A DNA stretch of 41,944 bases. Origin: Patescibacteria group bacterium. Lineage in GTDB: Bacteria > Patescibacteriota > Patescibacteriia > GCA-002772895. Position 1 is the stretch's first letter; every line of letters begins with the position of its first letter. The translations under genes were made by a program, and so were the position numbers. The notes beneath the pieces were generated by a model. It was given only the letters and a program-made list of their open reading frames with translations, ran no database searches and was not told where the DNA came from. Shown here one piece after another: positions 2,743 to 41,679 of the stretch. Where the stretch lies: assembly GCA_018895765.1 (NCBI GenBank), contig JAHINX010000061.1, forward strand, positions 1-41,944. Reading direction: 5' to 3'.

Positions 2743-3408
2743 ATGAGAAAAGCAAAAATCGCCGTGATTATACCGGCGTTTAACGAAGAAGAAACAATTG
2801 CAGGTGTGGTGGCGGCGGCAAGCGCGAGTGAATTGGTAAGTGAGGTTATTGTGGTTTCTGATGGTTCAGCCGATAAAACCGCCCGGTTAGCAAAAAAAAA
2901 TGGCGCAACTCAAATTTTTAATTTGCCAATAAAAAAAGGAAAGGGCGCCGCAATGCTTCACGGGCTCACTCATACGGATGCAGAAATAATCGTTTTTTTG
3001 GATGCGGATTTAAAGGGGTTTCGAGCGGAACACTTAAAGCGTTTGATAGAGCCGGTTTTTCGCGGTGAGTTAGTAATGAGTGTAGGGATTAGAGATCGTG
3101 GAAAGATAATGGAAAAAATCGGTCCATATCTTCCTCTTATCGGAGGAGAAAGAGCTATGCAGAGATTTGTAATAGAGAACATCCCGGACAAATATTTAAA
3201 GGGATTTATGATTGAGTCAGCGCTGAATTATTATTGCAGGTCCAGAGAGCTTCCCTATGGGACTGTTTTTTTGCCGGGCGTAAAAATAAGACGGAAGATG
3301 CAGAAAGTTGGGGTCTTGAAAGGGCTTTTGCAATATGTTAAGATGATATATCAAATTATAAAGGCAATGATATTGGTCAGATTGGCGAAAATGAGAGGAA
3401 GGTTTTAA
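2743..3408 (+). CDS. family 2 glycosyltransferase
   Basis: N-terminus KIAVIIPAFNEEETI...VVSDGSADKT...FLDADL is typical of the GT-A/GT2 fold. 221 aa. Confidence 0.75.
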   Translation: MRKAKIAVIIPAFNEEETIAGVVAAASASELVSEVIVVSDGSADKTARLAKKNGATQIFNLPIKKGKGAAMLHGLTHTDAEIIVFLDADLKGFRAEHLKRLIEPVFRGELVMSVGIRDRGKIMEKIGPYLPLIGGERAMQRFVIENIPDKYLKGFMIESALNYYCRSRELPYGTVFLPGVKIRRKMQKVGVLKGLLQYVKMIYQIIKAMILVRLAKMRGRF

Positions 3409-3530
3409 AGAAATTATCAATTATCAACGTTCAATTATCAATGAATTTCAAAGTTTAATTTTTTCAATGATCATTAAACGGTTTGCGATTGATTATTCAT
3501 TGATCATTGGTTATTGAATATTGAGTATTT

Positions 3531-4955
3531 ATGAAAGTTATTATCATGGGTCTGGGTTTATATGAAAAAGGAAGCGGCATTTCTGCCGCCAAGTTTTTTA
3601 TTGAAAAAGGCGACGAAGTTTTGATTACTGACTTAAAAGAGAGAAAGGAGTTGCTGCGTCAGATAAAAGAATTGGAAAAATTTTGCAAGAATCATAATAA
3701 AAAAATGCCCATACTTCATCTTGGTGGACATAAAGAAGATGATTTTAAAAGTGTAGATATTGTGATGCGGAATCCCGGCGTGCCAAAGGATTCGCTTTTT
3801 TTAAAAATCGCGCGAAAAGCCGGAGCGCAAATAGAAACCGATGTTACTATTTTTATGAAAAATTGCCACGCGATGGTTATTGGCGTAACAGGCACCCGTG
3901 GAAAAAGCACCACAGCATCTTTGATCTATGAAATATTGAAAAAATCCCCCCTAACCCCCCTTTGCAAAAGGGGGGAGAAAGGGGGAATTTGGCTTGGCGG
4001 AAATATAAAAATTTCTCCGCTTTCGTTTATAGAAAAAGTTAAGCCAAGCGATATTGTTGTTTTGGAATTTTCAAGCTGGATGCTGGAAAACTTTTCTGAA
4101 TATAAAATTGCCCCGCATATTGCTGTTATCACAAATATTTATCCCGACCATTTAAATACTTACAAAAATATGGCAGAATATATTTCTGCCAAGAAAAATA
4201 TTTTTCAATATCAAAAGGCAGGAGATTATTTAGTTTTAAACGGAGAGAATAGGGAAACGAAAAAATGGAAAGGCTATGGAAAAACAATTTATTTTTATAA
4301 AGAAAATATTAAAAAGTTTTATAAATTGCCCATTAAATTGCAGGGTGAGCATAATTTAGAAAATATTAGCGCGGCATATGCAGTGGTAAAAATTATGAAG
4401 GTGCCAGTAGCAAAGATTGAAAAAGTTTTGAAAAAATTTAACGGCCTCTCCGATAGACAGGAGATAATCGCGCAAAATAAGGGGATAACTTTTGTTAATG
4501 ATACAACAGCTACAACGCCGGACGGAACAATCGCGGCTCTCCGTAGATTTGGCGCGAACCAAGAAATCAAGAAAACAAGAAAACAAAAAAACAAGAAAAC
4601 AAGAAAGCAAGAAAGCAAAAAAATCATCCTAATCTGTGGTGGAAGCGACAAGGGGCTAGACTATAAACAATTTGCAAAAGAAGCAAAAAAATATTGCAAA
4701 GCAGTAATATTTTTTCCGGGAACGGCGACGGAAAAAATAAATTATAAATTATCAATTATCAATTATCAATTAATTATTATGGCGAAAGACATGAACAGTG
4801 CGGTAAAAAAGGCAAGACAACAGGCCATTAGAGGAGATATTATATTATTGTCTCCAGCTGCTGCCAGTTTCGGTTTGTTTAAAAATGAATTTGACAGAGG
4901 AGAGGAATTTAAGAAAGTAGTAACACAGGTAACACAGAAAGAACAGCACAGATAA
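3531..4955 (+). CDS. murD: UDP-N-acetylmuramoylalanine--D-glutamate ligase
   Basis: GVTGTRGKSTT P-loop and C-terminal LLSPAAASFGLFKNEFDRGEEF (MurD signature). Carries three repeat-derived in-frame inserts (see findings). Confidence 0.85.
   Translation: MKVIIMGLGLYEKGSGISAAKFFIEKGDEVLITDLKERKELLRQIKELEKFCKNHNKKMPILHLGGHKEDDFKSVDIVMRNPGVPKDSLFLKIARKAGAQIETDVTIFMKNCHAMVIGVTGTRGKSTTASLIYEILKKSPLTPLCKRGEKGGIWLGGNIKISPLSFIEKVKPSDIVVLEFSSWMLENFSEYKIAPHIAVITNIYPDHLNTYKNMAEYISAKKNIFQYQKAGDYLVLNGENRETKKWKGYGKTIYFYKENIKKFYKLPIKLQGEHNLENISAAYAVVKIMKVPVAKIEKVLKKFNGLSDRQEIIAQNKGITFVNDTTATTPDGTIAALRRFGANQEIKKTRKQKNKKTRKQESKKIILICGGSDKGLDYKQFAKEAKKYCKAVIFFPGTATEKINYKLSIINYQLIIMAKDMNSAVKKARQQAIRGDIILLSPAAASFGLFKNEFDRGEEFKKVVTQVTQKEQHR
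3941..3990 (-). repeat. G-rich hairpin element, family A, inverted copy inside murD
   Basis: aaaaatcccccctaacccccctttgcaaaaggggggagaaagggggaattt is the reverse complement of the family seen at 17213-17310, 19410-19455 and 35907-35953. Translated in frame as SPLTPLCKRGEKGGI. Confidence 0.7.
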
Positions 4956-9641: not shown

Positions 9642-10556
9642 ATGATTTCTAACTTGCAAAAAATATTCAAATTCGGAGCGCAAAATTTTGCCCGTAATTT
9701 TTGGCTGAAAATTTTGACTATCGTAATTTTAACAGTTCTACTTTTGCTAATAAATGGACTTGTGATTATAAATTTTTTGACCAACGAAGCATCTCGTCAG
9801 GTTCAGTCAAAAGTTGATGTCAGTATTTATCTGAAAACAAGTGCGACAAATGAAGAGGCGCAGAGTCTGCGATCTTATCTTATGAGTCTGGCTAACGTAT
9901 CCAATGTAACCTATAAAAGTTCGGATGATGTTTTGAAAGAATTTAAAGAAACGCACAAAGACGACCAAGACATTCTTTCTTCCCTAACGTTTTTAGAGAC
10001 AAATCCTTTCGGCGGGGCTTTAGTCGTGCAAACAGTAAATGTTAATGACTATAATACTGTTTTAAAACAACTCGACACTCCTATTTATGATAAAATAATT
10101 GAGAATAAAGATTTTGGCGACAATGAAAAACTTATTGAAGTAATAAATAGGATGACTAGTTTTGTAAAGCAATTTATAGTTCTAATTAGCCTATTTTTTG
10201 CCCTTATTGCGGTTATTGTGATATTTAACACTATCCGCATGGGGATTGATGCCCATCGCCACGAGATAAGCATAATGCGCCTTGTCGGCGCGGCAAATTG
10301 GTTTGTTAAGGGGCAATTTGTTGTTGAGCTGCTTATCTATAGTACTATTGCTGCTATAGCTTCTCTTATATTAATTTTTCCGATAATATCCGTAATACAG
10401 CCAAATGTGTTGGCATTTTTTAATGGTCAGGCAGGTGATATTTTTGCTTATTACAGGGCAAATATATTCGGGCTGTTTGCTTTGCAATTTGTTGGTATTT
10501 TTGCCTTTTCTTTGCTTTCCGCATGGTTTGCGCTGGGAAGATATTTGAAGAAATAA
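9642..10556 (+). CDS. ftsX: cell division permease FtsX
   Basis: N-terminal TM helix, extracytoplasmic domain, then three C-terminal TM helices. Adjacent to ftsE. Confidence 0.8.
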   Translation: MISNLQKIFKFGAQNFARNFWLKILTIVILTVLLLLINGLVIINFLTNEASRQVQSKVDVSIYLKTSATNEEAQSLRSYLMSLANVSNVTYKSSDDVLKEFKETHKDDQDILSSLTFLETNPFGGALVVQTVNVNDYNTVLKQLDTPIYDKIIENKDFGDNEKLIEVINRMTSFVKQFIVLISLFFALIAVIVIFNTIRMGIDAHRHEISIMRLVGAANWFVKGQFVVELLIYSTIAAIASLILIFPIISVIQPNVLAFFNGQAGDIFAYYRANIFGLFALQFVGIFAFSLLSAWFALGRYLKK

Positions 10557-10621
10557 TCAATGATCAATTTTCAATTATCAACTATGGTGTTCCCGCTATC
10601 GCGGGAACATTATTTAAAACT

Positions 10622-18195: not shown

Positions 18196-21100
18196 TAAAA
18201 AAATCCTCTTTCTATAAAAAAGGAGGATTTTGGAATTTCAGATTTCAAATTTCAGATTTTAGATTTAATCTGATTAAATTATTTATACCGGTTATTTTGA
18301 TTGCCGGTTTTTTTGTCCCCTATTTTTCTTTTGCTTGGGACAGCCATTTTACCCATCGCGCCTTAACTTATGAAGCGGGAGAATTTTTTAATTATTTTAA
18401 TGATAGCCAACTAAGTGAAGAAGAAATTAATTGGCTGATGCAAGGAGCGCAAGAAGAAGATACTCCTCCGCGCTGGATAAACCATTTTTACAATCCAATA
18501 ACAGGCGAGGGTTGGACAGGCGATAAGCTGGGAGAAAACTCCCCAGGGCTTGTAAAATTTTTAAGCGGATTTTTTCTTTCTTCAAGAACTGCGCTTTCTG
18601 CAAAAAACTGGGCAAAAAACCGTTCCGCCCAAGCTGACTATTCATTATATAAAGGCGACCAAACCTGGCAAAAAGCGATTGATGCCTATTTGGAAGGGGA
18701 TAGAGAATCCGCTTTTGTTGCTTTGGGCCATATTCTTCATCTATTGGAAGATATGACGGTGCCGGACCATACGCGCGGAGACACTCATGCCGGCATTGTT
18801 GGCGACAAAGGAAGCCCCTTGGAAAATTGGGCAAAAGAATATAACAAAGACAAAATTGGCAAATTACAAACAGCAGAGGAATTATATAAGTCAGGCCAGA
18901 AGCCAAAAGATTTTTCAATTTTGGAAAATTATTTTGATTGGAATGCAAAATACAGTAGTGAAAATTTTTTTAGTGAGGATACAATAAATGAAAACTTAAT
19001 AGCTGTTCCAGAGTTAATTATTGGAGAAAATCAGCAAATTTACGGTTATATTAATAATTATCCCGTTTATACGGTAAAAGATAATAAAGAAACTATCAAT
19101 GATCCCCAAATCCTCACCGCTTATTGGCAGCGCCTCTCAAAGCAGGCAGTCATCTCCAGCGCCGGAGTAATAAATCTTTTTTTCAAAGAGGCCGAACGCC
19201 AATCAAAACTTCCGCAAAAAATGACAAAAAAGAGCAATACTACAACAAACACAATTTGGTCGCCATTTGGGGAGCTTACAAAATTATACAATACAGCAGT
19301 TCAGTTCGCGCAAGGTTTTTTCCCGCAAAGCACAAAAGCCGATGAATCGGTAAATGATGAGATTGTCACGTCGCAAGCTAATAGTGGTGACGAACGACTA
19401 TCAGAGCAAGCTTCTCCCCCTTCGGAGAAGGGGGATTTAGGGGGATTTAATAATAACCAATCAACAATAATCAATCAGCAATCAATAATTCCTGACCCGA
19501 CTCCCGCAAGCGAATCAATAACAGAGCCGGAAACAAATTTCTACGTCAGCCAGGTAATAGACGGCGATACGATTACGTTGAATAGCGGAGAAGATGTCCG
19601 TCTAATTGGTATGGATACGCCAGAACGCGGAGAAGAGTGTTTTGAAGAAGCAAAGCAGAAAATGGAATCAATGGTATTGGGCAAGAATATCCGTTTAGAA
19701 AAAGATACAAGTGAAACCGACAAATATAATCGGTTGTTACGTTATATTTATATAGACGGCGTGTTGGTAAATGCCGAGATGCTAAAAGAGGGATATGCGC
19801 ATCTTATGATGATACGGCCGGATACGAAATATTACAGCGCTTTCAAGTCATACGAAGAAGAAGCGAAATTTTTTGAACGCGGATGTTTATTTCAAAAGGA
19901 AGGCGTCGGTGGAGCCGATCCAATAGATGAAACGCCGGTATACACGGGCTGGTCATCAGCCGGCGGGAGTTCTAAGCCGGCGCCTCAAGCGCCAAAGGAA
20001 GAAACGCCGACTTCAACTCCGGAAACCGCCACCAGCACGTTGGAAGTAATTTTGGAAGATATAACTTCAACCTCAACTCCGCAAACTTCAACCTCAACTC
20101 CGCAAACTTCAACCTCAACTCCGGAAACTTCAACCTCAACTCCGGAAACCGCCACCAGCACGTTGGAAATCCCCGAAATTTTGCCAAATATTATTATAAA
20201 TGAAATACAGATTAGCGGAGGTCCGGGTGACACCGATAATGAATTTATAGAATTATATAATAATTCATCTGGCGCAGTTGATATTACTGATTGGAAATTA
20301 TTTAAAAAAACAGAAACGGTGCTGAGTTATAACCCTGATAAACAGCCTCCTGCGGAATATAATCTTGTTTCAAAATTCCCCACGGGCTCAACAATTCCAG
20401 CGAATTCGTATTTTCTTATTGTCCCCAAAAATGCCATTGGTAAACATGCGGATACGAATTATACCAACGGAAGCAATTTTGCCACGAGCGACGATACTCT
20501 TATTATAAGAGATGCGGACGGAAATATTATTGATAAAGTCGGTTTTGGCCTTGCGAATGACTATGAAGTACAACAAACGTATAATCCGCTGGACGGCCAA
20601 AGCATAAGCCGCACAAATTTTATCGACACGAATAATAATTTTAATGATTTTACGGTTTCCAGTTCAACGCCACAAGGGACAAGTAGCACTATGGCAATTG
20701 CGCCAGAACCAGAGCCGGAACCGGTTATTCCACCTGTCGTACCGGAACCGTCGGCGCCAACAATAGCTTGCACTACCTTTACTTACGGTACTCATAACAA
20801 AGAGGAAGGAGAAGCAGACAAAATCGCCGCCGAACCATTTCCGGATTTTTCAAATACATTAACTGTTACATTGGAAGCAGGGAAGACCTACTACACCGAC
20901 GATACAATATCCATTCCTAATAATAGAAAGTTAATAATAGAAGAAGGTGTGGTGTTAAAATTTGGAAGATGGCGCTGGGGAGGATGGATGAACTTTCCAA
21001 TCAGTTTGCGCATTTTAGGAGACCTGGAAGTAAATGGCACTGCTTCAAACCCGGTTATTTTTACAACTTTCCGCGATGACGCGCACGGCGTGGCGATTGA

Positions 21101-23793: not shown

Positions 23794-23846
23794 ACAACAA
23801 AAAAGACAATACCCCTAAGCGAACATGTTTGCCGGGGGATTTTTTA
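23794..23846 (+). ncRNA. candidate about 50-nt small RNA or uvrB leader/attenuator
   Basis: The consensus promoter is followed by the hairpin cccc-taa-gcgaa-catg-tttgc-c-gggg and then gattttttag. Confidence 0.3.
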
Positions 23847-23929
23847 GTAGCTGGCTTCAAATTTTGGATTCGCCGGCTGGCGGAGAGCAAAATTTGATTA
23901 GCAGCTGCTAACCCCGCCCTAATTTTGTA
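23841..23929 (+). repeat. family E long-hairpin element ending in TAACCCCGC
   Basis: tagctggcttcaaattttg...caaaatttgattagcagctgctaaccccgccc. An inverted homolog lies at 26152-26227. Confidence 0.7.
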
Positions 23930-24010: not shown

Positions 24011-25999
24011 ATGAAATTTAAACTAAAATCAAAATATAAGCCGGCAGGCGACCAGCCAAAGGCGATTGAGGCTTTATTGGAGGGTTTAAAAAAGGGGATG
24101 CGCGCGCAAACACTTTTGGGAATTACCGGCTCCGGAAAAACTTTTACCATGGCTAATGTTATCGCAAAGATAAATCAGCCTACTCTTGTAATTGCGCACA
24201 ATAAAACTCTTGCCGCCCAGCTTTGTCAGGAGTTTCGCGAATTTTTTCCGGAAAATGCAGTGCATTATTTTGTCTCTTATTACGATTATTATCAGCCCGA
24301 AGCGTATATTCCGACAAGCGACACTTATATAGATAAGGAAGCAATGATAAATGATGAGATAGATCGTTTGCGCCATGCGGCCACTCAGTCGCTTCTCTCG
24401 CGCAGAGATGTAATAATAGTAGCTTCGGTTTCCTGTATCTATGGTCTTGGCGCGCCGGAAACATATGAAAAAATAAATCTGCATTTAAAAATCGGGGACG
24501 AATTTCTCCGTGATGATCTCATTCGGCGCCTTATTGATATGCAGTTTGAACGCACTAATTCCGATCTGACCCGCGGACATTTTCGTCTTCGCGGAGATGT
24601 TTTGGAAATAATGCCGATCAGTGAAGAAATCATCTATCGTATAGAGTTTAGCGCCTTAGGAAAAAACAATAGCGTGAATAATATTGTCCTTATTGACCCT
24701 GTCACGCGGAAAATAAAATCAAAAGAACAGAGCGCTTGGATTTTTCCGGCAAAGCATTTTATAACAAAAGAAAGCGAAAGAAAAAAATCCCTGAAAGAGA
24801 TAAATATAGAGCTTGAAAAACAATTAAAAATTTTTGAACGTGAAGGAAAGTTATTGGAAGCCGAACGTCTGGCGCGCCGGACAAAAAACGATATAGAAAT
24901 GATACGCGAGCTGGGGTATTGTCATGGGATAGAAAATTATTCTCGCCACTTATCCGGTAGAAAGGCGGGCGAATCGCCGGACACTCTTTTGAGTTATTTT
25001 CCAAAAACTTTTTTAACAATTATCGATGAGTCGCATGTCACTATTCCGCAAATTGGCGGGATGTATGAGGGTGACGCTTCCAGGAAACGGACGCTTATTG
25101 AATATGGCTTCCGTTTGCCGTCTGCCGCCGACAACCGTCCACTTAAGTTTCCGGAATTTTTGGCGCGGACAGGACAGATGATTTTTACTTCTGCCACCCC
25201 GAGTACTTATGAAAAAGAAAATAGTGAGCAGATAGTAGAGCAGATTATTCGCCCTACCGGACTCATAGACCCGAAGATTACAATTTGTCCTATAACTGAA
25301 ACAGAAAAAAATCTTTCGCAAGTTGATGACCTCTTGAAGCGCGTAAAAGAAAAAGTTGAAAAAGGGGAGCGCATATTGGTAACGACCCTTACAAAAAAAA
25401 TGGCTGAAGATTTATTTCAGTATTTGCATGAAGAGAAAATAAAAGCCAATTATATTCATAGTGATGTAAAAGCCCTGGATCGTATTAAAATTTTGACTGA
25501 TTTTCGCAGAGGAAAGTTTGATTGTTTAGTTGGAGTAAATCTTCTCCGCGAAGGGCTGGATTTGCCGGAAGTGACAATGGTGGCAATTTTGGATGCGGAT
25601 AAAGAAGGATTTTTGCGGAGCGAAACCGCGCTTATCCAAACAATTGGTCGGGCGGCAAGAAATGTTTTGGGCGAAGTTATTCTTTATGCCGACAATATGA
25701 CCGGTTCTATGCGCCGTGCGTTTGACGAAACAGAACGGCGCCGTTTTTTGCAACTGGCATATAATAAACGCCACAACATCACCCCGCAGACGATTATAAA
25801 GAATATCAAAAATATTTTGCCGGAAATAATGGAAACAGAAAAGCAAGAAGATGCGCCAATAAAGGGTAGAAATATAAAACAAATTATTTCTGAAAAAGAG
25901 CGCCAGATGAAAGATTCGGCGAGCCGGTTGGATTTTGAAACCGCGGCCATTCTGCGTGATGAGGTAAGGATTCTGAAAAAGAAATCCCGGAATCATTAA
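24011..25999 (+). CDS. uvrB: excinuclease ABC subunit B
   Basis: 662 aa. GITGSGKTFTMA, the YYDYYQPEAY beta-hairpin region, helicase motifs and a C-terminal UVR domain. Confidence 0.95.
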   Translation: MKFKLKSKYKPAGDQPKAIEALLEGLKKGMRAQTLLGITGSGKTFTMANVIAKINQPTLVIAHNKTLAAQLCQEFREFFPENAVHYFVSYYDYYQPEAYIPTSDTYIDKEAMINDEIDRLRHAATQSLLSRRDVIIVASVSCIYGLGAPETYEKINLHLKIGDEFLRDDLIRRLIDMQFERTNSDLTRGHFRLRGDVLEIMPISEEIIYRIEFSALGKNNSVNNIVLIDPVTRKIKSKEQSAWIFPAKHFITKESERKKSLKEINIELEKQLKIFEREGKLLEAERLARRTKNDIEMIRELGYCHGIENYSRHLSGRKAGESPDTLLSYFPKTFLTIIDESHVTIPQIGGMYEGDASRKRTLIEYGFRLPSAADNRPLKFPEFLARTGQMIFTSATPSTYEKENSEQIVEQIIRPTGLIDPKITICPITETEKNLSQVDDLLKRVKEKVEKGERILVTTLTKKMAEDLFQYLHEEKIKANYIHSDVKALDRIKILTDFRRGKFDCLVGVNLLREGLDLPEVTMVAILDADKEGFLRSETALIQTIGRAARNVLGEVILYADNMTGSMRRAFDETERRRFLQLAYNKRHNITPQTIIKNIKNILPEIMETEKQEDAPIKGRNIKQIISEKERQMKDSASRLDFETAAILRDEVRILKKKSRNH

Positions 26000-26151
26000 C
26001 ATTGGCGGAAATAATAGCTTTGGACTTCAAAATTTGAAGTCAGCCTACCCCGCGCCAAAGCCCGAACAGAATCTACTTTATCCTTTTGGATATCGGCTCG
26101 GAATCGCCTAACGGCTTACACCAACTAAAAATAATATCTTTCAAACGGCTT

Positions 26152-26227
26152 GGTGCGGGGTTAATAACTGCTGGTCAAATTTTGTTCGTCCTTTGGACTT
26201 CAAAATTTGAAGCCAGTTATTAAAAAA
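26152..26227 (-). repeat. family E long-hairpin element (inverted relative to 23841-23929)
   Basis: Its reverse complement is tttttaataactggcttcaaattttgaagtcc...caaaatttgaccagcagttattaaccccgcacc. A shortened third copy lies at 26015-26058. Confidence 0.7.
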
Positions 26228-26252
26228 AGCCCCGCTCAAATGAGTCGGGGCT
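26222..26252 (-). terminator. rho-independent terminator of the minus-strand GC-rich unit
   Basis: The minus strand reads agccccg-actcatttgag-cggggct followed by T7. Confidence 0.75.
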
Positions 26253-27048: not shown

Positions 27049-27126
27049 TGGTACCCCCGACCGGATTCGAACTGGCGAATACTGGCGTTAAAGGCTAGTC
27101 TCTTAAGCAAACTAGAGTACGGGGTA
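27049..27126 (-). pseudogene. tRNA-like sequence with UUA at the anticodon position and an encoded CCA; degenerate
   Basis: TACCCCG-TA-CTCT-AGTTTGCTTA-AGAG-A-CTAGC-CTTTAAC-GCCAG-TATTC-GCCAG-TTCGAAT-CCGGT-CGGGGGT-A-CCA. There is an A-C mismatch in both the anticodon and T stems, the 5' acceptor strand is one C short, and the D-loop has no GG. Confidence 0.45.
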
Positions 27127-27586: not shown

Positions 27587-27685
27587 GGGGGGTCTATAAA
27601 AATACTGTAATTTTAGCTAAATATGATAGTAGTATCTTGCTTAAAGTACCGAAATAAGCTAAAATTAACCAACCTATACATTATT

Positions 27686-30340
27686 ATGCAGGATAAGATA
27701 ATTATAAAAGGCGCGCGTGAGCACAATCTGAAAAATATTAGTTTGGAGCTTCCGCGCAATAAGCTGATCGTTTTTACGGGATTATCCGGTTCGGGAAAAT
27801 CGAGCCTGGCTTTTGATACTATTTTTGCCGAAGGCCAGCGCAGGTATATTGAGTCGCTATCGGCATATGCCCGGCAGTTTTTGGGAAAGATGGATAAGCC
27901 GGATGTTGATGAAATAGAAGGTCTTGCGCCGGCAATTTCCATTGATCAAAAAGCCCATAGCGCAAACCCGCGTTCAACCGTGGCGACCATTACCGAAATT
28001 TATGATTATTTGCGCGTCCTCTTTGCTCGCGTGGGAGAACCGTTTTGTCCAGTTTGCAAAAAGAAAATTCAAAAAATGACTGTCCAGGAAATGGTGGATG
28101 TAACGCTAGAAAAATTGGAAAAAGAAAAAATAAAAAGCGAAGATAAACTAATTATTTTATCTCCAATTATTCGTGGCCGAAAAGGCGAATATTATCAGCT
28201 TCTTTATGATTTATATAATAAAGGTTTTAGTGAAGTCGCGGTTGACGGAAAAATGCATAAGCTTAGTGGAACGATAAAATTATCCCGTTATAAACGGCAC
28301 GATATTGATTTGGTTATCAGAAAATTAACCATCGCATATCCGATCCATGATAATAAAGTTTTGCAAAAAGAATTATCCGAAGCAATAGAAACTTCTTTAG
28401 AAGAGTCGGACGGTTTGGTAAAAATTATTATGCCGGGGACGTCTGTCATTGCGAGGAGTCCGTACTCGGAGGACGTGGCAATCTCACTGCAAAAAGATAG
28501 GATTGCTTCGTCGCAGAATTCTCCATTTTCCGTCAAGGCTACGAACGGCACGCAGAATGACGTTTTATTACTTTCGTCAAAATATTCTTGCCCGAATGAT
28601 AATTTTGCTTTTCCGGAAATAGAACCGCGTCTTTTTTCATTTAATAGTCCATACGGCGCTTGTGAATATTGTCATGGAATTGGAACGAAATTTATTTTTT
28701 CTGACGAAATATGCCCAAAGTGTCTTGGTAAGCGCCTAAAAATAGAAGCGCTTCATGTTTTAATCGGCGGAAAAAATATTAATGATGTTGTTAATATGTC
28801 GATAAGCGAAGCAGTAGAGTTTTTTAGTGGATTAAAATTATCCGCAAAACAAAAAGAAATTGCCGAAGCCGCGCTCCGCGAAATAAAAAACCGCCTTACT
28901 TTTATGCTTGATGTTGGGCTTAATTATCTAACATTGAATAGAAAGGCTGGCACCTTGTCTGGCGGAGAAGCACAAAGAATCCGGCTTGCTTCGCAAGTTG
29001 GCTCACGTCTTGTCGGCGCGCTCTATGTTCTTGATGAGCCGACAATCGGGCTTCACCAGCGTGACAACGAGCGTTTGCTTGAAACGTTATCTGAGCTCCG
29101 CGATATCGGCAATACGGTGATTGTAGTTGAGCATGATGAAGATACAATCTTAATGAGTGATTATATGGTTGATATAGGTCCTGGCGCCGGTAAAAACGGT
29201 GGAGAAATAGTTGCATCAGGCACGTTGCAGGAGGTTTTGAAAAATAAAAATTCTTTGACCGCAAAATATCTCCGCGGAGAATTAAAAGTGCCAATGCCCG
29301 AGACGCGCAGAAAAAATATTAAAGAAAAAATTGTAATTTCCGGCGCGACCGAGCATAATCTGAAAAATATAAAAATTGAAATTCCCTTGAAAAAATTTGT
29401 TTGTCTTACCGGCGTTTCCGGTTCCGGTAAATCAACGGTGATGAATGACATTTTATACCGCGCGGCTTCCAAAAAAATAAACCATTCAGGGGTTAGGCCG
29501 GGCGCATATAAAAAAATAGAAGGCCTCTCGCATATTGATCGCGTGATTGTTGTTGACCAGTCGGCAATTGGTAGAACTCCGCGTTCCAATCCGGCAACTT
29601 ATACCGGATGTTGGACACATGTCCGCGAACTTTTTTCCACTACGCCCGAAGCGCGGGCGCGTGGGTATAAAATCGGACGTTTCAGTTTTAACCGCCCGGG
29701 TGGAAGATGCGAACACTGCGAAGGTAATGGCACGATTGCTATTGAAATGCATTTTTTGCCGACAGTTTATGTAAAATGCGATGTTTGTAAGGGCAAGCGG
29801 TTTGACCGCGAAACATTGGAGATAAAATATAAAGGGAAGAATATTGCTGATATTTTGGATATGGAAATAGATGAAGCCGATGGATTTTTCAAGAATATTC
29901 CGCAGATATCCGACAAGCTGAAAGTTTTGCGCCAAGTCGGTTTGGGCTATTTGGAACTCGGCCAGGGCGCGCCGACCTTGTCTGGCGGAGAAGCGCAAAG
30001 AGTGAAATTGGCAAAAGAGCTTTCAAAATATTATTCTCTTCGTTTCCGTCAAGGCCTGTCGCGTTCGCTTTATCTTTTGGATGAGCCGACAGTCGGCCTC
30101 CATTATGACGATATAAAAAAGCTTGTCGCGGTTTTGCAAGAGCTTGTTTCCGCGGGAAATACAGTTCTAATTATTGAACATAATCTTGATATAATAAAAA
30201 ATGCGGATTATATTATTGACCTTGGTCCGGAGGGCGGGGATAAAGGTGGAGAGGTTATTGCAACTGGTACACCGGAAGAGGTGGCGCGGATGCCCAGATC
30301 ATATACGGGGCAATACTTGCGAAAAGTTTTGGGGGTTTAG
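27686..30340 (+). CDS. uvrA: excinuclease ABC subunit A
   Basis: The start is set at [18 protein letters not shown]. Two ABC modules ([26 protein letters not shown] x2) and zinc-finger Cys clusters. Confidence 0.95.
28445..28561 (+). mobile_element. family C MITE-like element, 117 bp, in frame inside uvrA
   Basis: gtcattgcgaggagtccgtactcggaggacgtggcaatctc...cgcagaatgac, with terminal inverted repeats. The first roughly 40 nt match 32027-32066. Translated as [39 protein letters not shown]. Confidence 0.75.
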
Positions 30341-30384
30341 TTTACCCCGCGCCAAACTCAATAAAAAAAAGCCCAAGTTGGGCT

Positions 30385-30642
30385 TTAGTTACGGTTTTGT
30401 TTCCATTGGCGGAGTTTATCGATAATTGCTTCAAGACGCATTTTGAAATTGAAATCATCTTCGCCGGGCATGCGTGTTTTGACTAGTGTGATTCCGTTTT
30501 TATACCTTTCAATAAAATCTATATCAAATTGAGTATAAGGGATGACACTTACAAATACCGGAGCTCCTACTTTTTCGTCATAAGGCATTTCAATGATATA
30601 GCCCCTATTAGGCAACGACGATACTTGAATGAGCTGGTTCAT
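30385..30642 (-). CDS. hypothetical protein (orphan cassette)
   Basis: 85 aa counted from ATG 30642 (SD AAGGAGG). Promoter TTGACA(30690-30685)-17-TAATAT(30667-30662). Terminator hairpin aagcccaa/ttgggctt overlaps the stop codon. Confidence 0.6.
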   Translation of the reverse strand: MNQLIQVSSLPNRGYIIEMPYDEKVGAPVFVSVIPYTQFDIDFIERYKNGITLVKTRMPGEDDFNFKMRLEAIIDKLRQWKQNRN

Positions 30643-30773
30643 GACTACCTCCTTATCCATAATATTAAGCGTAAATATATTTTATGTCAACCAAATTAGA
30701 AAAATATTCATAAAAATCCCCAATACTTTTCGCGAACGCGAAAAGTATTGGGGATTTAAATAAAATCAGGATT

Positions 30774-32015
30774 ATGTTTAGTAAAAAAATGGCAAAAGCA
30801 TTAAATAACCTACCTGACAAGCCCGGCGTATATCTTTTTAAAGATAATCGTGGGGAAATTATTTATGTTGGCAAAGCCGGCTCATTAAAGCGGAGAGTAA
30901 AATCATATTTTGCGCGGGCAGGGGACAGAAAAACAGAAGCGCTTGTTTCGGAAGCTATTGATTTGGAAATCCGCGAAACGCCATCTGTTCTTGAAGCTCT
31001 GATTTTGGAAGCGGAACTTATAAAAAGATTAAAACCAAAATACAACATCCGCGATAAAGACGATAAGTCATTTATTTATGTCGGCATCACGCGGGAAGAT
31101 TTTCCAAAACCGATATTGGTGCGCGGGCATGAGTTGCAAGCTATGAATTCTAAGTTTCAAGTTTCTTTTGGGCCGTTTACCAGCGCCGGCGCGCTCCGTG
31201 AAGCGTTAAAAATTTTGCGCGGAATTTTTCCTTGGTCAGAGTGTAAACCAAACCAAAACAAACCATGTTTTTATTATGGCATTAAAAAATGTCCCGGTGT
31301 ATGCGTTGGCAAAATCAGTAAAAAAGATTATCAGAAAAACATTTCAGGTTTAAAATTATTTTTTCGCGGGAAGAAGACGCAAATTATAAAAAATCTGGAA
31401 CGCGAAATGAAAGAGGCTTCAAAAGATCGCGAGTTTGAGCGCGCGGCTGAATTTCGCAATAGGATTTATGCCCTAAACCATATTCATGATATTTCTTTGA
31501 TAAAAAAAGACGATTTTATGAACTGTAGGGCTCCCGAAGCCCTACAGCATAAAGCAATGGGCAGAATTGAGGGGTATGATATATCCAATATCAGCCAAAA
31601 GCTGGCAACCGGTTCTATGGTCGTTTTTAGAGATGGCGCGCCGGAAAAAAAAGAATATAAAAAATTTCGCATAAAAAATACCAAGTCCGGCGACGTGCCA
31701 ATGCTTCGCGAGGTTTTGACGCGCAGATTTAAAAATAATTGGCCAAGTCCTGATATAATTTTGATTGATGGAGGAGAAGCGCAGGTTGGCGTTGCGGAAA
31801 AAGTTTTGAAGGCAAACAAATTGAATATTCCGGTTATTGGCATTGCCAAGGGGATCTCCAGAAAAAACGACCGTTTTGTTTTTGATTATAATGACCAGGA
31901 ATTGAAAAGAATAACTAAAATTTTTGAAAATTTATTTAAACAGGTTCGCGATGAAGCGCATCGTTTTGCGATTGGCTACCATAGAAGTTTGCGGAAAATA
32001 AAACGGCCGTTATAA
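30774..32015 (+). CDS. uvrC: excinuclease ABC subunit C, short form without the C-terminal (HhH)2 domain
   Basis: GIY-YIG (PGVYLFKDNRGEIIYVGKAGSLKRRV), a UVR domain (FERAAEFRNRI) and an endonuclease domain (IEGYDISN...DGGEAQ...RDEAHRFAI). It ends after 413 aa. Confidence 0.85.
   Translation: MFSKKMAKALNNLPDKPGVYLFKDNRGEIIYVGKAGSLKRRVKSYFARAGDRKTEALVSEAIDLEIRETPSVLEALILEAELIKRLKPKYNIRDKDDKSFIYVGITREDFPKPILVRGHELQAMNSKFQVSFGPFTSAGALREALKILRGIFPWSECKPNQNKPCFYYGIKKCPGVCVGKISKKDYQKNISGLKLFFRGKKTQIIKNLEREMKEASKDREFERAAEFRNRIYALNHIHDISLIKKDDFMNCRAPEALQHKAMGRIEGYDISNISQKLATGSMVVFRDGAPEKKEYKKFRIKNTKSGDVPMLREVLTRRFKNNWPSPDIILIDGGEAQVGVAEKVLKANKLNIPVIGIAKGISRKNDRFVFDYNDQELKRITKIFENLFKQVRDEAHRFAIGYHRSLRKIKRPL
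31521..31547 (+). repeat. family B 27-nt hairpin element in uvrC
   Basis: aactgtagggctcccgaagccctacag. Stem gtagggct/agccctac, loop cccga. Translated as NCRAPEALQ. Confidence 0.85.
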
Positions 32016-32026
32016 AACCTCTTTCC

Positions 32027-32131
32027 GTCATTGCGAGAAGTGCGTACTCGCGCGACGTGGCAATCCCGTCTAAAATGAGATTGCCACGCCCCGCTCCAGT
32101 TTTGAAGAACTGGATCTGGACTCGCAATGAC
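32027..32131 (+). mobile_element. family C MITE-like element, intergenic copy directly after the uvrC stop
   Basis: gtcattgcgagaagtgcgtactcgcgcgacgtggcaatccc...ctcgcaatgac. Flanked by the imperfect direct repeats aacggccgttataaaac (32002-32018) and aacggcctcataaaac (32149-32164). Confidence 0.75.
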
Positions 32132-32213
32132 ATGCAGGGGAGTTTTAGAACGGCCTCATAAAACGGGTTGACAAAAAGTAATAAATTTGCTTAAATATAA
32201 GGAAGGAGGCGCG

Positions 32214-35544: not shown

Positions 35545-35630
35545 TGCCCCCGCTTTAGCGGGATTTTTTGTTTTTAACGATTTTAGATATCTCTTGCAAA
35601 AAAGCATATTTTAAGATAATATTATATAAT

Positions 35631-37109
35631 ATGCCATACAAAAAATATAAAAAGATTCATTTTATAGGGATTGGCGGAATAGGCGTAAGCGCTGTTGCTA
35701 AGTGGGCGCTTTTGGAAGGCGTGGAGGTGAGCGGTTCCGATGTGGAAAATACAGAAATAACGAGTGAGCTTCAAAAAATGGGAGCCAAAATTTTTATTGG
35801 TCATAAAGAAAAAAACATTGCGCGTGATATTGACTTAATTGTTTATTCTTCGGCCGTGCCAGCCACAAATCCTGAACGCTCGGTTTTGAGACGGATACGC
35901 CACAGCAAGTCCCTTCCTTTGGAAAAGGAAGGACAGGATGGATTTAATAATGATTTAATTCCCCAGAAATCATATTTCGAATTTTTGGGAGAAATAACCC
36001 GTGGGAAAAAATTGATTGCAGTGTCAGGGACTAATGGCAAGAGCACGACAACGGCAATGCTGGGAAAAATTTTGATTGACGCCGGTCTTGACCCACTTGT
36101 TATCGTCGGTTCAAAAATAAATGTTTTTTCGCACGGCAATTTTAATTATGGAAAAGGGGAATACGCAGTCGTGGAGGCATGCGAGCATAACGCGCATATG
36201 TTGAATCTGCATCCATGGTCAATCGTTCTTACAAATATAGAAGCAGATCATTTGGATTTTTATAAAAATTTGGACAATATTCTGGAAGCGTTTAAAAAAT
36301 ATGTCGCCAAGATAGAAAAAGGATGTTTTCTAATATATAACGGCGATGATAAAAATAGCGCCGAGGTGGCAAAAACTCACGCTTGCCGTCTTATTTCCTA
36401 TGGCGTGCATGAAGATGCGGACTTGCGGTTTGAAGAGCGCCATATCGATAAAGGCACACAGATTTTTCAAACAAAAACTGTAGGGCTCCCGAAGCCCTAC
36501 CAGATGGAATTGCAAGTACCTGGGCTTTTTAATGTTTATAATGCGATGGCGGCAATATCTATGGCAAAGGCGCTTGGTATCAAATTTGAGGTAATAAAAA
36601 AATCGCTTGCAAATTTTCGCGGGCTTTGGCGCAGGTTTGAGCACGTTGGAGAATATAATGGCGCGCCAATTATTTCCGATTACGGCCACCATCCGCACGC
36701 GATAGAAGCAACGCTTTTGGCCGCACGCGAATTTTATCCGGATAGAAGAGTTATATTAGCATACGAACCACACCAGCACCATAGGACAAAGGCTCTTTTT
36801 GCCGATTTTGTCCGCAGTTTCGACAAGGCAGATGTTCTTATTTTGGGAGAGATATATAATGTAGAAGGAAGAGTCGAAAAACAAGATTGTGATATATCTT
36901 CGCGCAAACTTGCAGACGCAATTATAAAGTATTGGGAATCGGATGAAAATAAAAAGGAGCGTACAGAGCACGAATTATTTTATTGTGAAAATAATGATGA
37001 AGTTTTGAAAGCGCTGAAAGAGACAATAAACTCCGACGACGTTGTGATAATTATGGGAGCAGGGGGGATTTACAAAGTTGCAAAAAGATTGATTGCCGCG
37101 GATTCCTAG
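35631..37109 (+). CDS. murC: UDP-N-acetylmuramate--L-alanine ligase
   Basis: The start is set at MPYKKYKKIHFIGIGGIGVSAVA. GTNGKSTT and DYGHHPHAIEATL. Carries a family A insert (35907-35953) and a family B insert (36476-36503). Confidence 0.9.
   Translation: MPYKKYKKIHFIGIGGIGVSAVAKWALLEGVEVSGSDVENTEITSELQKMGAKIFIGHKEKNIARDIDLIVYSSAVPATNPERSVLRRIRHSKSLPLEKEGQDGFNNDLIPQKSYFEFLGEITRGKKLIAVSGTNGKSTTTAMLGKILIDAGLDPLVIVGSKINVFSHGNFNYGKGEYAVVEACEHNAHMLNLHPWSIVLTNIEADHLDFYKNLDNILEAFKKYVAKIEKGCFLIYNGDDKNSAEVAKTHACRLISYGVHEDADLRFEERHIDKGTQIFQTKTVGLPKPYQMELQVPGLFNVYNAMAAISMAKALGIKFEVIKKSLANFRGLWRRFEHVGEYNGAPIISDYGHHPHAIEATLLAAREFYPDRRVILAYEPHQHHRTKALFADFVRSFDKADVLILGEIYNVEGRVEKQDCDISSRKLADAIIKYWESDENKKERTEHELFYCENNDEVLKALKETINSDDVVIIMGAGGIYKVAKRLIAADS
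35907..35953 (+). repeat. family A hairpin element (diverged copy) inside murC
   Basis: aagtcccttcctttggaaaaggaaggacaggatggatttaataatgat is translated as KSLPLEKEGQDGFNNDL. Confidence 0.6.
36476..36503 (+). repeat. family B hairpin element in murC
   Basis: aactgtagggctcccgaagccctaccag is translated as TVGLPKPYQ. Confidence 0.85.
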
Positions 37110-39015: not shown

Positions 39016-41679
39016 ATGTTCTTCTCCGACCCAAACAAAAAAGCGTTAAAAAGAATGCAGCCATTTGTGGATAAAACCAATGAGCTGGAACCAGCATTTG
39101 AAAAAATGTCTGATTTTGATTTGCAAAATAAAAGCAAAGAACTAAAAACGCAGGCTCAAACAACTGTAGGGCTCCCGAAACCCTATAGTTTAGATGATAT
39201 TTTGCCTGAGGCGTTTGCCTTAGTGCGCGAAGCGGCAAAGAGAACATTGGGACAGCGTCATTTCGACGTTCAGCTCTTGGGCGGAGTCGTTCTTCATAAT
39301 GGAGAAATCGCGGAGATGAAAACCGGTGAAGGAAAAACCTTAACTTCCACTTTGGCGGTATATCTAAATGCTTTGGCAGGAAGGGGAGCGCACGTTGTTA
39401 CTGTAAATGATTATCTTTCCCGCCGTGACGCCATATGGATGGGGCAGATTTTTGGATTTTTAGGTCTTTCGGTTGGTATTATCAACCATATGCAGTCATT
39501 TCTATATGACGCGAGCTGGAAGGCGGAAACGCCGGAAGAATCGGAAGAAGCTGACCGCAAACGCGACCTTTATGCCAGCTTCCGTGTAAATGAGGATTTT
39601 TTGCGCCCATGTTCCCGCAAAGAAGCATATGACGCGGACATTACTTACGGCACAAACAATGAATTTGGTTTTGATTATTTGCGTGACAATATGGCAACTC
39701 GGCTGGAGGATAGAGTTCAGCGCGAATTTTATTATGCGATTGTGGATGAAGTAGATTCTATTTTAATTGATGAGGCGCGTACCCCGCTCATTATCTCGGC
39801 GCCAGCAGAAGAATCTGGCGAAATGTATGCCCGCTTTGCCCGTATTGTAAAAAATTTAAAAGAAGACGAAGATTATAATCTAGATTTAAAAATGCGCGCC
39901 GCAACGCTTACGGATGCAGGCGTGGATAAAATAGAAAAAGCGCTTAATATTCCGAATATTTATGCTGAAGGCGGAATAAAAATGGTCCATCATCTTGAGC
40001 AGGCCTTAAAAGCTGAAACACTTTTTCACCGTGACAAGGAATACGTAATCCGAGACGGAGAAGTTTTTATTGTTGATGAATTTACTGGCCGGTTAATGCC
40101 TGGTAGGAGATATAGCGAAGGGCTTCATCAGGCGATTGAGGCCAAAGAGGGCGTAAAAGTTCAGCGCGAAAACCAGACGCTAGCCAGCGTTACATTTCAA
40201 AATTATTTTAGAATGTATGAAAAGCTCGCCGGTATGACCGGCACGGCCTTGACGGAAGCGGAAGAATTTTCAAAAATTTATTTTCTTGAAACTGTGGCCA
40301 TGCCGACAAATAAGCCATTATCAAGAAAGGATTTTCCGGACAGAATTTATAAAAATAAAAAAGGAAAAATCCGCGCGGTAATAGAAGAGGTGAAAGAACT
40401 TCAGGCAAAAGGACAGCCAGTATTGGTTGGTACGGTATCGGTTGAAGAGAATGAAGAATTTAGCGAAAAATTTGAAAAAGCAGGCATACGCCATGAAATT
40501 TTGAATGCAAAAAATCATGCCCGTGAAGCGGAGATTATTGCTCAGGCAGGCAAAAAGGGCGCGGTGACTCTAGCTACCAATATGGCAGGCAGAGGCGTTG
40601 ATATTGTCTTGGGTGGTGCTCCATATAATGAGAAAGCGGCCGAAGAAATCCGCGTTTTGGGAGGCTTAGCGGTAATTGGCACTGAACGGCACGAATCGCG
40701 CCGGATCGATAATCAGCTCCGCGGACGCGCCGGACGCCAGGGCGATCCGGGCTTTAGTCGTTTTTATGTATCCTTGGAAGATGAACTGATGCGTATTTTT
40801 GCGGCCGAAAAGATAGGATATATAATGGAAAAGCTGGGTCTTCCGGAAGATACGCCGATTGAAAACGGAATGGTTTCAAAGGCTATTGAATCAGCCCAGA
40901 AAAAAGTTGAAGGACATAATTTTGATATCAGAAAGCACTTACTTGAGTATGATGATGTTATAAATCGTCATCGCGAAGCGATTTATTCACGCAGAAGAAG
41001 CATTTTGGAACGGGAGAACATAAAAGAAGATATATTAAAAATAATAGAAGACGAGCTGGAGCAGGTGATTGTTTTTCATACTTCCGATCCGGCACGTAAA
41101 AATTGGAATTTAAAAGAAATATGGCAGGTGGCAAATACAATTTTTTCTTTAGAAAAAGAAGTATTAGCAAAATTTTCAGAGATTTTGGCAGGCGAGGGGA
41201 GCGACAATCTTAGCGTCGTAAAACGCAGAGACGCGATGGTTGAGATTTTGGTTAAAAAAATGCGAGAAGAATACGAAAAAATGGAAAGTAGAATGATTGA
41301 ACAATCTGGAAACCGCGAAATTTTGCGCCAGATTGAAAAAGGCCTTAGTATGCGCGTTCTTGATACTTTATGGATAAGCCATCTTGAAGAAATTGATTAT
41401 TTACGTACAAGTATCGGTTTGCGTGGAATTGCCGGCAAAGATCCTTTGGTGGAATTTAAGCGCGAAGCATATCGCCTTTGGAATGAGCTCCAGTCCGCAA
41501 TTGATAAGCAAATGGCGTACTCTATTTTTAAAATTGAACTTGCGCAGAATATGGCCCCCCAGTCTCCCTTTAAAAATCAAAACGTGAATGCTCCTTTAGA
41601 GCAAAAAGAAAAAGCTGGTCGCAATGATCCTTGTCCCTGTGGAAGCGGTAAAAAATACAAAAAATGCTGTGGCGTGTAA
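39016..41679 (+). CDS. secA: preprotein translocase ATPase SecA
   Basis: 887 aa. LPEAFALVREA, MKTGEGKTL, DEVDSILIDEARTPLIIS, and the C-terminal zinc motif CPCGSGKKYKKCCG. Confidence 0.95.
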   Translation: MFFSDPNKKALKRMQPFVDKTNELEPAFEKMSDFDLQNKSKELKTQAQTTVGLPKPYSLDDILPEAFALVREAAKRTLGQRHFDVQLLGGVVLHNGEIAEMKTGEGKTLTSTLAVYLNALAGRGAHVVTVNDYLSRRDAIWMGQIFGFLGLSVGIINHMQSFLYDASWKAETPEESEEADRKRDLYASFRVNEDFLRPCSRKEAYDADITYGTNNEFGFDYLRDNMATRLEDRVQREFYYAIVDEVDSILIDEARTPLIISAPAEESGEMYARFARIVKNLKEDEDYNLDLKMRAATLTDAGVDKIEKALNIPNIYAEGGIKMVHHLEQALKAETLFHRDKEYVIRDGEVFIVDEFTGRLMPGRRYSEGLHQAIEAKEGVKVQRENQTLASVTFQNYFRMYEKLAGMTGTALTEAEEFSKIYFLETVAMPTNKPLSRKDFPDRIYKNKKGKIRAVIEEVKELQAKGQPVLVGTVSVEENEEFSEKFEKAGIRHEILNAKNHAREAEIIAQAGKKGAVTLATNMAGRGVDIVLGGAPYNEKAAEEIRVLGGLAVIGTERHESRRIDNQLRGRAGRQGDPGFSRFYVSLEDELMRIFAAEKIGYIMEKLGLPEDTPIENGMVSKAIESAQKKVEGHNFDIRKHLLEYDDVINRHREAIYSRRRSILERENIKEDILKIIEDELEQVIVFHTSDPARKNWNLKEIWQVANTIFSLEKEVLAKFSEILAGEGSDNLSVVKRRDAMVEILVKKMREEYEKMESRMIEQSGNREILRQIEKGLSMRVLDTLWISHLEEIDYLRTSIGLRGIAGKDPLVEFKREAYRLWNELQSAIDKQMAYSIFKIELAQNMAPQSPFKNQNVNAPLEQKEKAGRNDPCPCGSGKKYKKCCGV
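39162..39188 (+). repeat. family B hairpin element in secA
   Basis: aactgtagggctcccgaaaccctatag is translated as TVGLPKPYS, just upstream of the conserved LPEAFA segment. Confidence 0.85.

Follow-up and report, generated by a model that had tools for sequence, protein, structure and literature searches.

Results

Two related palindromic elements at the uvrA and uvrC loci

The window, that is, the whole stretch of DNA analysed in this study, is the 41,944-nt contig JAHINX010000061.1 of a Patescibacteria group bacterium (assembly GCA_018895765.1, forward strand), with a G+C content of 40%. Its genes lie in the order uvrB (24011-25999), two tRNA genes, uvrA, uvrC, mraZ, mraW, mur genes, and secA, and they are syntenic with those of Parcubacteria group bacterium CG10_big_fil_rev_8_21_14_0_10_36 (GCA_002772895.1, locus L001). 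This metagenome-assembled genome (MAG) is the nearest relative, and its UvrA (P0002) is about 95% identical to that of the window over the aligned residues. The initial annotation had described a 117-bp element, likened to a miniature inverted-repeat transposable element (MITE), which is translated in frame inside uvrA, and a sister copy at a truncated end of uvrC. It was confirmed that both sequences are present, at 28445-28561 in uvrA (copy A) and at 32027-32131 by the end of uvrC (copy B).

Copy A (plus strand) is a palindromic element of exactly 117 nt that is read as 39 stop-free codons in the uvrA frame. When the window is compared with the DNA of L001, exactly 117 extra nucleotides lie between ATGCCG... 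and ...CTTTCGTCAAAATATTC, and the site is empty in locus L002 as well. The left arm (28444-28485, plus strand) consists of a TGTC tag, the stem ATTGC, an inner hairpin TCCG-TACT-CGGA, GCAAT, and a tail, and is identical at 39 of 42 positions to an intergenic copy in locus L006 (11030, minus strand). The right half (28501-28561, plus strand) is decayed. Its GATTGCTTCGTC pairs with the left inner stem, its terminus is imperfect (CGCAGAATGAC, followed by G), and nothing to the right of position 28515 matches the family profile described below. The tags are TGTC at one end and CGTC at the other. The left arm and a central stem are intact, while the fold of the entire copy is not above the level of shuffled sequences (z = -0.9). 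It seems that the secondary structure of copy A has decayed since insertion, within the coding region.

The core of copy B (32027-32131, plus strand) is a 105-nt dimer of the CGTC type, with CGTC and TGTC tags at its ends, three internal hairpins, and inverted repeats of 11 bp at its termini that match perfectly (GTCATTGCGAG / CTCGCAATGAC). Its fold is a junction of three hairpins, which the 11-bp terminal stem closes; the free energy (dG) is -53.6 kcal/mol and z = -8.4. Terminal inverted repeats had been ascribed to both copies; they are perfect in copy B, but the right terminus of copy A makes only an imperfect match. The common start of about 40 nt was recovered, with 35 of the first 41 nucleotides identical. 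The 11-mer GTCATTGCGAG has three exact occurrences in the window (28445+, 32027+, and 32121-), which are the left ends of copies A and B and, as the reverse complement, the right end of copy B. The chance expectation for a given 11-mer on both strands (84 kb) is about 0.02. An nhmmer profile was built from 115 family members, all from genomes other than that of the window. In the window it matched the sites of copies A and B only, with E = 3.6e-14 for the left 70 nt of copy A and E = 1.2e-17 for copy B. Copy B is a true sister of copy A and, like it, is absent from the relative.

The 105-nt core stands as annotated, but it is not the full extent of the inserted DNA. At uvrC the window has 160 nt over both L001 and L002. 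This surplus consists of a 151-nt insertion (32007-32157, plus strand), which folds as one long hairpin (z = -7.1), and one copy of a 9-nt direct repeat, ATAAAACGG. The direct repeat lies at 31998-32006 and 32158-32166 (plus strand) and is a possible target-site duplication, as the comparison with L001 indicates: the empty site there has one ATAAAACGC only. Within the insertion, extra DNA of 20 nt and 26 nt flanks the core and makes up an outer inverted repeat (GGCCGTTATAAAAC / GTTTTAGAACGGCC), whose left arm is GGCCGTTATAAAAC (32005-32018, plus strand) and whose right arm is GGCCGTTCTAAAAC (32142-32155, minus strand). The outer flanks do not recur among about 250 loci. A metagenome scan for the outer inverted repeat returned only an unrelated MITE family by way of a common 13-mer, and thus the outer flanks of copy B stay unique. 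The family that it hit, in loci L245-L254 (JGI metagenomes Ga0209780 and Ga0209363), is MITE-like; its members measure about 170-200 nt and have long terminal inverted repeats (GTTTCTCTTCATTGTAAAAGCCGCCGTTCTAAAACAGC...). The direct repeat and the unique outer flanks suggest a different or composite insertion event for copy B.

The uvrC gene (30774-32015, plus strand) encodes 413 amino acids, and its last two codons and stop codon (CCG TTA TAA, 32007-32015) come from the inserted DNA. The protein ends in ...RKIKRIDKKE* in L001 and in ...RKIKRPL* in the window; the insertion swapped the last five codons (IDKKE) for PL and a stop codon. The UvrC proteins of all relatives are 415-469 amino acids long; they contain GIY-YIG, UvrC_M, UVR, and RNase-H-like domains and lack a C-terminal helix-hairpin-helix domain. 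Thus, the shortness that had been read as a truncation of uvrC is lineage-wide and the element is not its cause; only the last five codons were replaced. Copy B would be open in both orientations. A role of copy B as a terminator was considered and rejected, as no T-run follows it and no terminator was called. The UvrC proteins of L004 (9538-10947) and L006 (11481-12836) have lineage-specific in-frame linker inserts of their own (PFGEGASHTSSPEGVGG / PPFIKEGAPPFGKGRLGG) before the RNase-H-like domain, and that of L006 has a further insert of 24 amino acids. These insert peptides resemble translated GGGGG/CCCCC palindromes found in the window at 17224, 19411, 35908, and 3942.

Anatomy and spread of the repeat family

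The element consists of two stem-loop arms that face each other as an inverted dimer, with a variable spacer between them. Each arm is 26-40 nt long and follows the same plan: after a pyrimidine-GTC tag comes an invariant stem of 5 bp (ATTGC/GCAAT), then a small internal loop, a variable inner stem-loop (a 5-bp stem with a triloop), and a short tail. Since the two arms are inverted across the spacer, two folds are open to the element, namely a pair of hairpins or a single long hairpin with GTCATTGCGAG/CTCGCAATGAC as its closing stem. I compiled 616 arms, 558 of them distinct. A pyrimidine precedes GTCATTGCGAG in 97% of the arms (T in 59%, C in 38%). Compensatory changes in the inner stem fill 26 cells, compared with 6.6 +/- 2.2 in shuffles (none of 500 shuffles was as high), and the covariation is far above that of slid controls. 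The tail is CTC in 40%, CCA in 25%, and CCC in 20% of the arms.

The family is spread far beyond the window. The pattern GTCATTGCGAG..GCAATC..GATTGC was found in at least 120 stretches of viral contigs in IMG/VR, and among the matches listed an inverted partner terminus accompanies 163 of 174 pattern matches, mostly with element lengths of 72-105 nt. The G+C content of the host contigs ranges from 34% to 72%, and the termini are nearly identical across phyla. The consensus also matches plasmids of Novosphingobium, Methylosinus, Methylocystis, Methylobacterium, and the cyanobacterium Aulosira; in Novosphingobium resinovorum, at least 40 places on one 1.76-Mb replicon are occupied. A subfamily with CGTACTCG in the first side hairpin, to which both window copies belong, is present in at least 118 stretches of species-representative genomes. 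Among the matches listed, its hosts in the candidate phyla radiation (CPR) are Falkow-, Komeili-, Uhr-, Collier-, Woese-, Moranii-, Doudna-, Gracili-, and Saccharibacteria and Parcubacteria. Outside the CPR they are Gammaproteobacteria, Anaerolineae, Dehalococcoidia, Campylobacteraceae, and Flavobacteriales, and single MAGs carry matches on at least eight contigs, again among the matches listed.

The element matched no Rfam family at the gathering thresholds or at E <= 10, and the translated elements matched no family in Pfam and NCBIfam. A BLAST search of phage GenBank entries with copy B gave no match. A literature search for the string GTCATTGCGAG returned unrelated primer matches only, and nothing relevant was found for CPR together with MITE or repetitive extragenic palindromic (REP) sequences; no paper naming the family was found.

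The insert in the UvrA protein

The uvrA open reading frame (ORF; 27623-30340, plus strand) encodes 905 amino acids at its longest. The probable start is M22 at 27686, since relatives begin with MQDKII, and the protein would then have 884 amino acids. The codons of copy A correspond to residues 275-313 of the 905-residue ORF, or 254-292 of the 884-residue protein (numbering used hereafter). The UvrA of the nearest relative is 845 amino acids long, which is 884 minus 39. I compared the window's UvrA with its 120 closest cluster representatives (P0001-P0120). The segment holding the insert is 27 residues long in 112 of these 120 relatives versus 66 residues in the window, and the 39 codons align with no conserved UvrA sequence. 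That copy A is an insertion in uvrA, as had been proposed, is borne out by this alignment, by the lack of exactly these 39 codons in L001, and by the match to the repeat profile. A protein-database search with the 113-residue segment around the insert returned only short insert-free UvrA fragments and was uninformative.

In solved UvrA structures, about five residues occupy the insertion point (2r6f, chain positions 255 to 261). The match to the isolated UvrB-interaction domain (3fpn; 2r6f was also aligned) ends three residues before the insert starts. In an AlphaFold2 model built from a 66-sequence alignment, the mean predicted local distance difference test score (pLDDT) of UvrA is 78.7, while residues 254-291 score below 50 (block means of about 24) and are without secondary structure; strands at 244-248 and 293-297 flank the insert. 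According to this model, the insert is predicted to be a disordered loop that takes the place of a beta-hairpin turn, and it lies at the C-terminal edge of the UvrB-binding domain. Between the window and L001, the synonymous divergence (dS) of uvrA is 0.84 and the ratio of nonsynonymous to synonymous divergence (dN/dS) is 0.03, namely 0.033 upstream and 0.031 downstream of the insert. Therefore, the uvrA frame past the insert has stayed under strong purifying selection. Judging from the open frame and the downstream dN/dS of 0.03, the 39 codons are most likely translated as a disordered loop.

Two features of the UvrA clade of the window were seen besides. It does not have the "insertion domain" of the solved UvrAs, there being no counterpart of residues ~305-417 of 2r6f, and its first zinc module reads CPxC...CPND rather than two cysteine pairs.

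Recurrent insertion into the same UvrA hairpin

It was found that two further Parcubacteria UvrAs (P0007 of locus L004 and P0006 of locus L006) have members of the family in the same hairpin and in the same frame, where a serine is followed by VIARSEAERNDEAI...ARDD. In a neighbour-joining tree, the closest relative of each UvrA carrier is without the insert. The G-x-E turn is kept downstream of the element in P0006 and P0007 and is lost in the window. Since the closest relatives are insert-free and the G-x-E turn differs, at least two and probably three independent insertion events appear to have hit this one hairpin, as read from the sequences.

Among the 120 relatives, 62 proteins carry a total of 97 insertions of six amino acids or more, spread over 13 sites of the alignment. 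Core position 153, within the UvrB-binding domain, is a second hot loop, and there P0106 has a 39-residue insert, VIPNAVRDL...ARARDD, that resembles another CGTC-type element. P0014 and P0018 have further lineage-specific inserts.

In-frame copies in other genes

Is uvrA a special case? In 22 of the 122 elements in the genome loci, an open frame runs through the element and extends for 50 codons or more to either side, and Pfam domains were found in nine of the ten spanning ORFs scanned. In-frame copies occur in UvrB, in a UvrD-like helicase/PD-(D/E)XK nuclease, in a TruB fusion protein (at the same site in two genomes), in two GT4 glycosyltransferases between their two Rossmann domains, and in two O-antigen-ligase-like (Wzy) proteins. 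Among the loci derived from the pattern search, phage portal proteins of the SPP1, Mu, and HK97 types also have in-frame copies. The in-frame copies lie in or near interdomain linkers. As for the portal proteins, the insertion site is the same in six IMG/VR contigs with SPP1-type portals, and in another set it lies between the Portal_Mu and Mu_F domains; the IMG/VR contigs with copies in portal protein genes are L095, L053, L107, L115, L076, L084, L105, and L079.

By its make-up, the family lends itself to translation. For 167 copies whose length is a multiple of three, the frame reading GTC-ATT is open in 109, the next frame in 98, and the third frame in one. The third frame is nearly always closed because a TGA is read in AATGAC. 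Roughly one fifth of the family copies would pass a filter requiring the right frame and no stop codon.

Discussion

Relation to known palindromic repeats

Palindromic elements read as protein have precedents. The Rickettsia palindromic elements (RPEs), which Ogata and colleagues (in Science in 2000) and Claverie and Ogata (in TIBS in 2003) are said to have described, are reportedly palindromes of 100-150 bp that lie in frame and without stop codons in essential genes. They reportedly occupy surface positions in proteins whose homologues are insert-free, and the papers of Ogata and Claverie are said to have found that RPE-bearing proteins are expressed. Copy A is like RPEs, by that description: it is a palindrome that lies in frame in a conserved gene and adds no stop codon, and the orthologues are without it. 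In contrast to RPEs, the present repeat belongs to a different sequence family and a different host phylum, and it is known here from the genes alone.

REP doublets forming hairpins (REPINs), reportedly described by Nunvar and co-workers in 2010 and by Bertels and Rainey in 2011, are said to consist of two inverted REP arms and a short spacer, to have a GTAG tag, to be mobilised by REP-associated tyrosine transposases (RAYTs), and to be species-specific. The present family is similar to REPINs in having two inverted arms with a spacer, many copies per genome, and some tandem clusters, but its tag is YGTC instead of GTAG and its termini are nearly identical across phyla. No Y1 transposase or RAYT was found among the window ORFs scanned.

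Bacterial MITEs such as Correia, Nezha, and RUP are short, non-coding elements with terminal inverted repeats (reviewed in PMC10969869). The present elements are likewise short and non-coding, with inverted repeats at their termini, and a 9-nt direct repeat flanks copy B. In contrast to these MITEs, no matching insertion sequence (IS) was found among the window ORFs scanned or near copies in viral loci, the duplication bounds more than the conserved core, and copy A is without a duplication.

The closest resemblance in architecture is to the CGTC-tagged REPs (Di Nocera, De Gregorio, Rocco 2013, BMC Genomics 14:522; PMC3733652). These have a CGTC or TGTC tag (also CCTC), a single stem of 8-9 bp starting with AT, a loop of 4-5 nt, and a CCA tail, and are mostly inverted dimers. 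Four families were described, with many copies per genome that are mostly intergenic and near the 3' ends of ORFs, and without a dedicated transposase; the superfamily includes Rickettsia RPE-4/RPE-6 and Neisseria dRS3 (PMC3733652). The same survey lists REPs in frame in uvrA of Opitutus terrae and Thioalkalivibrio, uvrB of R. conorii, UvrD/Rep helicases, recBCD, and truB, and already remarks on recurrent hits by other REP families in excision-repair genes. The present family has the Y-GTC tag, the stem starting with AT, a short tail that is CCA in about 25% of the arms, and the inverted dimers folding into a large hairpin. It also shares the gene context, with copy B at the uvrC stop codon and in-frame copies in uvrA, uvrB, uvrD-type helicases, and truB. 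The hosts in the CPR and Chloroflexi and the phage-like contigs lie outside the coverage of that survey, and the string ATTGCGAG is absent from its supplements. By comparison of architecture, the family is CGTC-like and is not among the four described CGTC families. The phenomenon of in-frame palindromic inserts of the RPE/REP type, uvrA included, is already known; what is new is an unnamed, extremely widespread CGTC-like family, now in CPR bacteria and in phage genes.

Origin of the insertions

The reading I prefer, with a probability of roughly 0.78, is that copies A and B are very widespread non-autonomous palindromic repeats and that the uvrA copy is a tolerated passenger, not a functional module. 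After the split from the lineage of the CG10 Parcubacteria, one copy entered uvrA at a beta-hairpin turn, and a second copy entered the last uvrC codons after the same split. The uvrA copy may have survived because its length is a multiple of three, it is stop-free in the frame used, and it fell in a surface turn. The 39 residues would most likely form a disordered loop, which UvrA tolerates. The conserved tag and hairpin suggest, as proposed for REP/RAYT, a mobilising enzyme that acts in trans and recognises the tag and single-stranded hairpin DNA.

Several points weigh against this reading. No transposase was found among the 20 window ORFs scanned, which are housekeeping genes, and the other window ORFs match housekeeping genes of L001. 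Nor did a partner enzyme appear within 1.2 kb of 182 copies in viral loci, where every ORF cluster consisted of phage genes for portal, terminase, capsid, or tail proteins. At copy A a target duplication could not be recognised, and the 15 nucleotides that flank it are unlike the empty site. The 9-nt direct repeat and the 46 nt of extra DNA with its own inverted repeat at copy B are more like a MITE of the DDE type than like a REP. In comparison with the CGTC-tagged REPs, the arms are longer, at 26-40 nt, and more complex, with a 5-bp invariant stem, an internal loop, and a covarying second stem, and the tail is CTC or CCC more often than CCA, which ends about 25% of the arms. Therefore, it is by architecture only that the family would belong to the CGTC superfamily. 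The three hits in the UvrA hairpin could also mean targeting and not passive tolerance.

Could the elements be classical MITEs, that is, deletion derivatives of an IS moved by a DDE transposase that recognises the inverted termini, with target-site duplication? Such elements would have a duplication of fixed length at every copy and would share their termini with an autonomous IS of the same genome or a related one. The perfect 11-bp termini of copy B, the outer 14-nt inverted repeat, and the 9-nt direct repeat, which bounds the insertion and is single in the empty site, would fit such an origin. The direct repeat, however, bounds the 151-nt unit and not the conserved 105-nt core, the outer flanks were unique among about 250 loci and in the metagenome scan, and copy A has no duplication. 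A transposase was found neither among the window ORFs scanned nor near other copies. Moreover, the conserved tag, hairpin, and tail, the inverted dimers, and the tandem clusters are REP features, and near-identical termini across phyla at 34-72% G+C are unlike an IS-specific MITE. I consider the classical MITE unlikely, and a CGTC-tagged REP dimer (REPIN/RPE-like) fits the anatomy better than the label "MITE-like" of the initial annotation.

The YGTC-ATTGCGAG family keeps near-identical 11-nt termini and inner stems across CPR, Chloroflexi, Proteobacteria, Cyanobacteria, and phages, and it has entered UvrB, UvrC, a UvrD-like helicase, and TruB besides the UvrA hairpin. There is also an outside chance that the family is mobilised with a real target preference, either by some broadly distributed machinery not yet recognised or by a universal host factor. 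If this were true, for example with a preference for DNA exposed in excision repair or for certain contexts of sequence or structure in these genes, the recurrence in repair genes would be mechanistic or adaptive and not the product of a passive filter.

A host function of the insert seems quite improbable. The loop could modulate the interaction between UvrA and UvrB, or a hairpin in the mRNA could regulate uvrA, and the recurrence in repair genes would then be adaptive or targeted. The insert does sit at the hinge of the UvrB-binding domain, the same UvrA hairpin was hit in three lineages whose nearest relatives are without an insert, and in-frame copies in UvrB, the UvrD-like helicase, and TruB mirror the gene list of PMC3733652. 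Yet the three UvrA inserts differ in sequence and length, AlphaFold2 predicts disorder, and 112 of the 120 relatives do without any insert. The hairpin of copy A is at the level of shuffled sequences, so there is no sign of selection on its structure. Large multidomain proteins with flexible turns may simply be more permissive hosts.

It is very improbable that the 39 codons are an old UvrA segment that the relatives have lost. The inserts of P0006 and P0007 at nearly the same place and in the same frame might suggest this, but at least six independent precise deletions would be needed on the tree, the insertion point differs, and the G-x-E turn is kept in P0006 and P0007 and lost in the window. 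Moreover, the segment matches an interspersed-repeat profile built from unrelated genomes, and the relative is without the sister copy near uvrC as well.

Finally, that the element is lost on the way to the finished protein (as an intron, an intein, or a translational bypass) or is an assembly artefact is hardly credible: the canonical element is strongly palindromic and the contig comes from a metagenome assembly, but 117 nt or 39 amino acids is too short for a group I/II intron or an intein, there is no match in Rfam even at E <= 10 or in Pfam or NCBIfam, the frame is open and continuous with neither a stop codon nor the matched take-off and landing codons of T4 gene 60, and independent assemblies (L004/L005 and L006) have analogous in-frame inserts.

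Other repeats and a tRNA-like gene in the window

A second, smaller palindromic repeat, AACTGTAGGGCTCCCGAAGCCCTAC, with a GTAG tag followed by a GGCT/AGCC stem, has three copies in the window, all in frame in genes: 31521-31545 in uvrC, 36476-36500 in a Mur ligase ORF (35568-37109), and 39162-39186 in secA (ORF 39016-41679). They are read as NCRAPEALQ or TVGLPKPY. The copy in SecA adds six residues relative to L001, and those in UvrC and the Mur ligase each replace a variable-linker segment of equal or almost equal length. Repeat-derived DNA is present in at least four genes of the 42-kb window (uvrA, uvrC, the Mur ligase gene, and secA).

Other repeats were also noted. The uvrB gene (24011-25999) is bracketed by inverted repeats of about 90 nt (23833-23922 and 26150-26234), which are 79-85% complementary and 2.2-2.3 kb apart and had no BLAST match in L001. 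A repeat with an 8-nt period (AAGAAAAC, 4556-4621) lies inside a MurD-like ORF (3531-4955), a 21-nt tandem repeat (20001-20168) encodes T/S/P-rich units in a 1176-residue nuclease/LTD protein, and a repeat of the ATTATCAA type occurs at three places (3405-3447, 4733-4783, and 10545-10587).

A tRNA-like gene with the anticodon UUA lies at 27049-27126 on the minus strand and adjoins a tRNA-Lys gene. ARAGORN calls it 'tRNA-Stop', and it scores 37.9 bits with the Rfam tRNA model. Its anticodon would read the stop codon UAA. Of the 21 long ORFs in the window, 13 end in TAA, which makes it the most frequent stop codon there. At this site L001 has a Lys-Gln-Val-Glu-Met cluster without a UUA tRNA. The idea that the gene is a mutated copy of the neighbouring tRNA-Gln of L001 gained no support from the alignment, in which the two are not close copies.

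Implications

For the analysis of CPR genomes, in-frame inserts of this type inflate or distort protein alignments, domain boundaries, and gene calls, and the repeats give rise to spurious ORFs with recurring peptides such as VIARSEATKQS, SLRGA..RSNL, and ..LAMT. The pairs of filled and empty sites are clean material for the study of the insertion mechanism. The recurrence in the UvrA hairpin and the conservation of the termini across phyla are the points that most deserve follow-up. Selfish palindromic DNA in protein genes had been described in Rickettsia and a few Proteobacteria; with this family, its known range takes in the CPR bacteria, which are ultra-small and streamlined, and the structural genes of phages.

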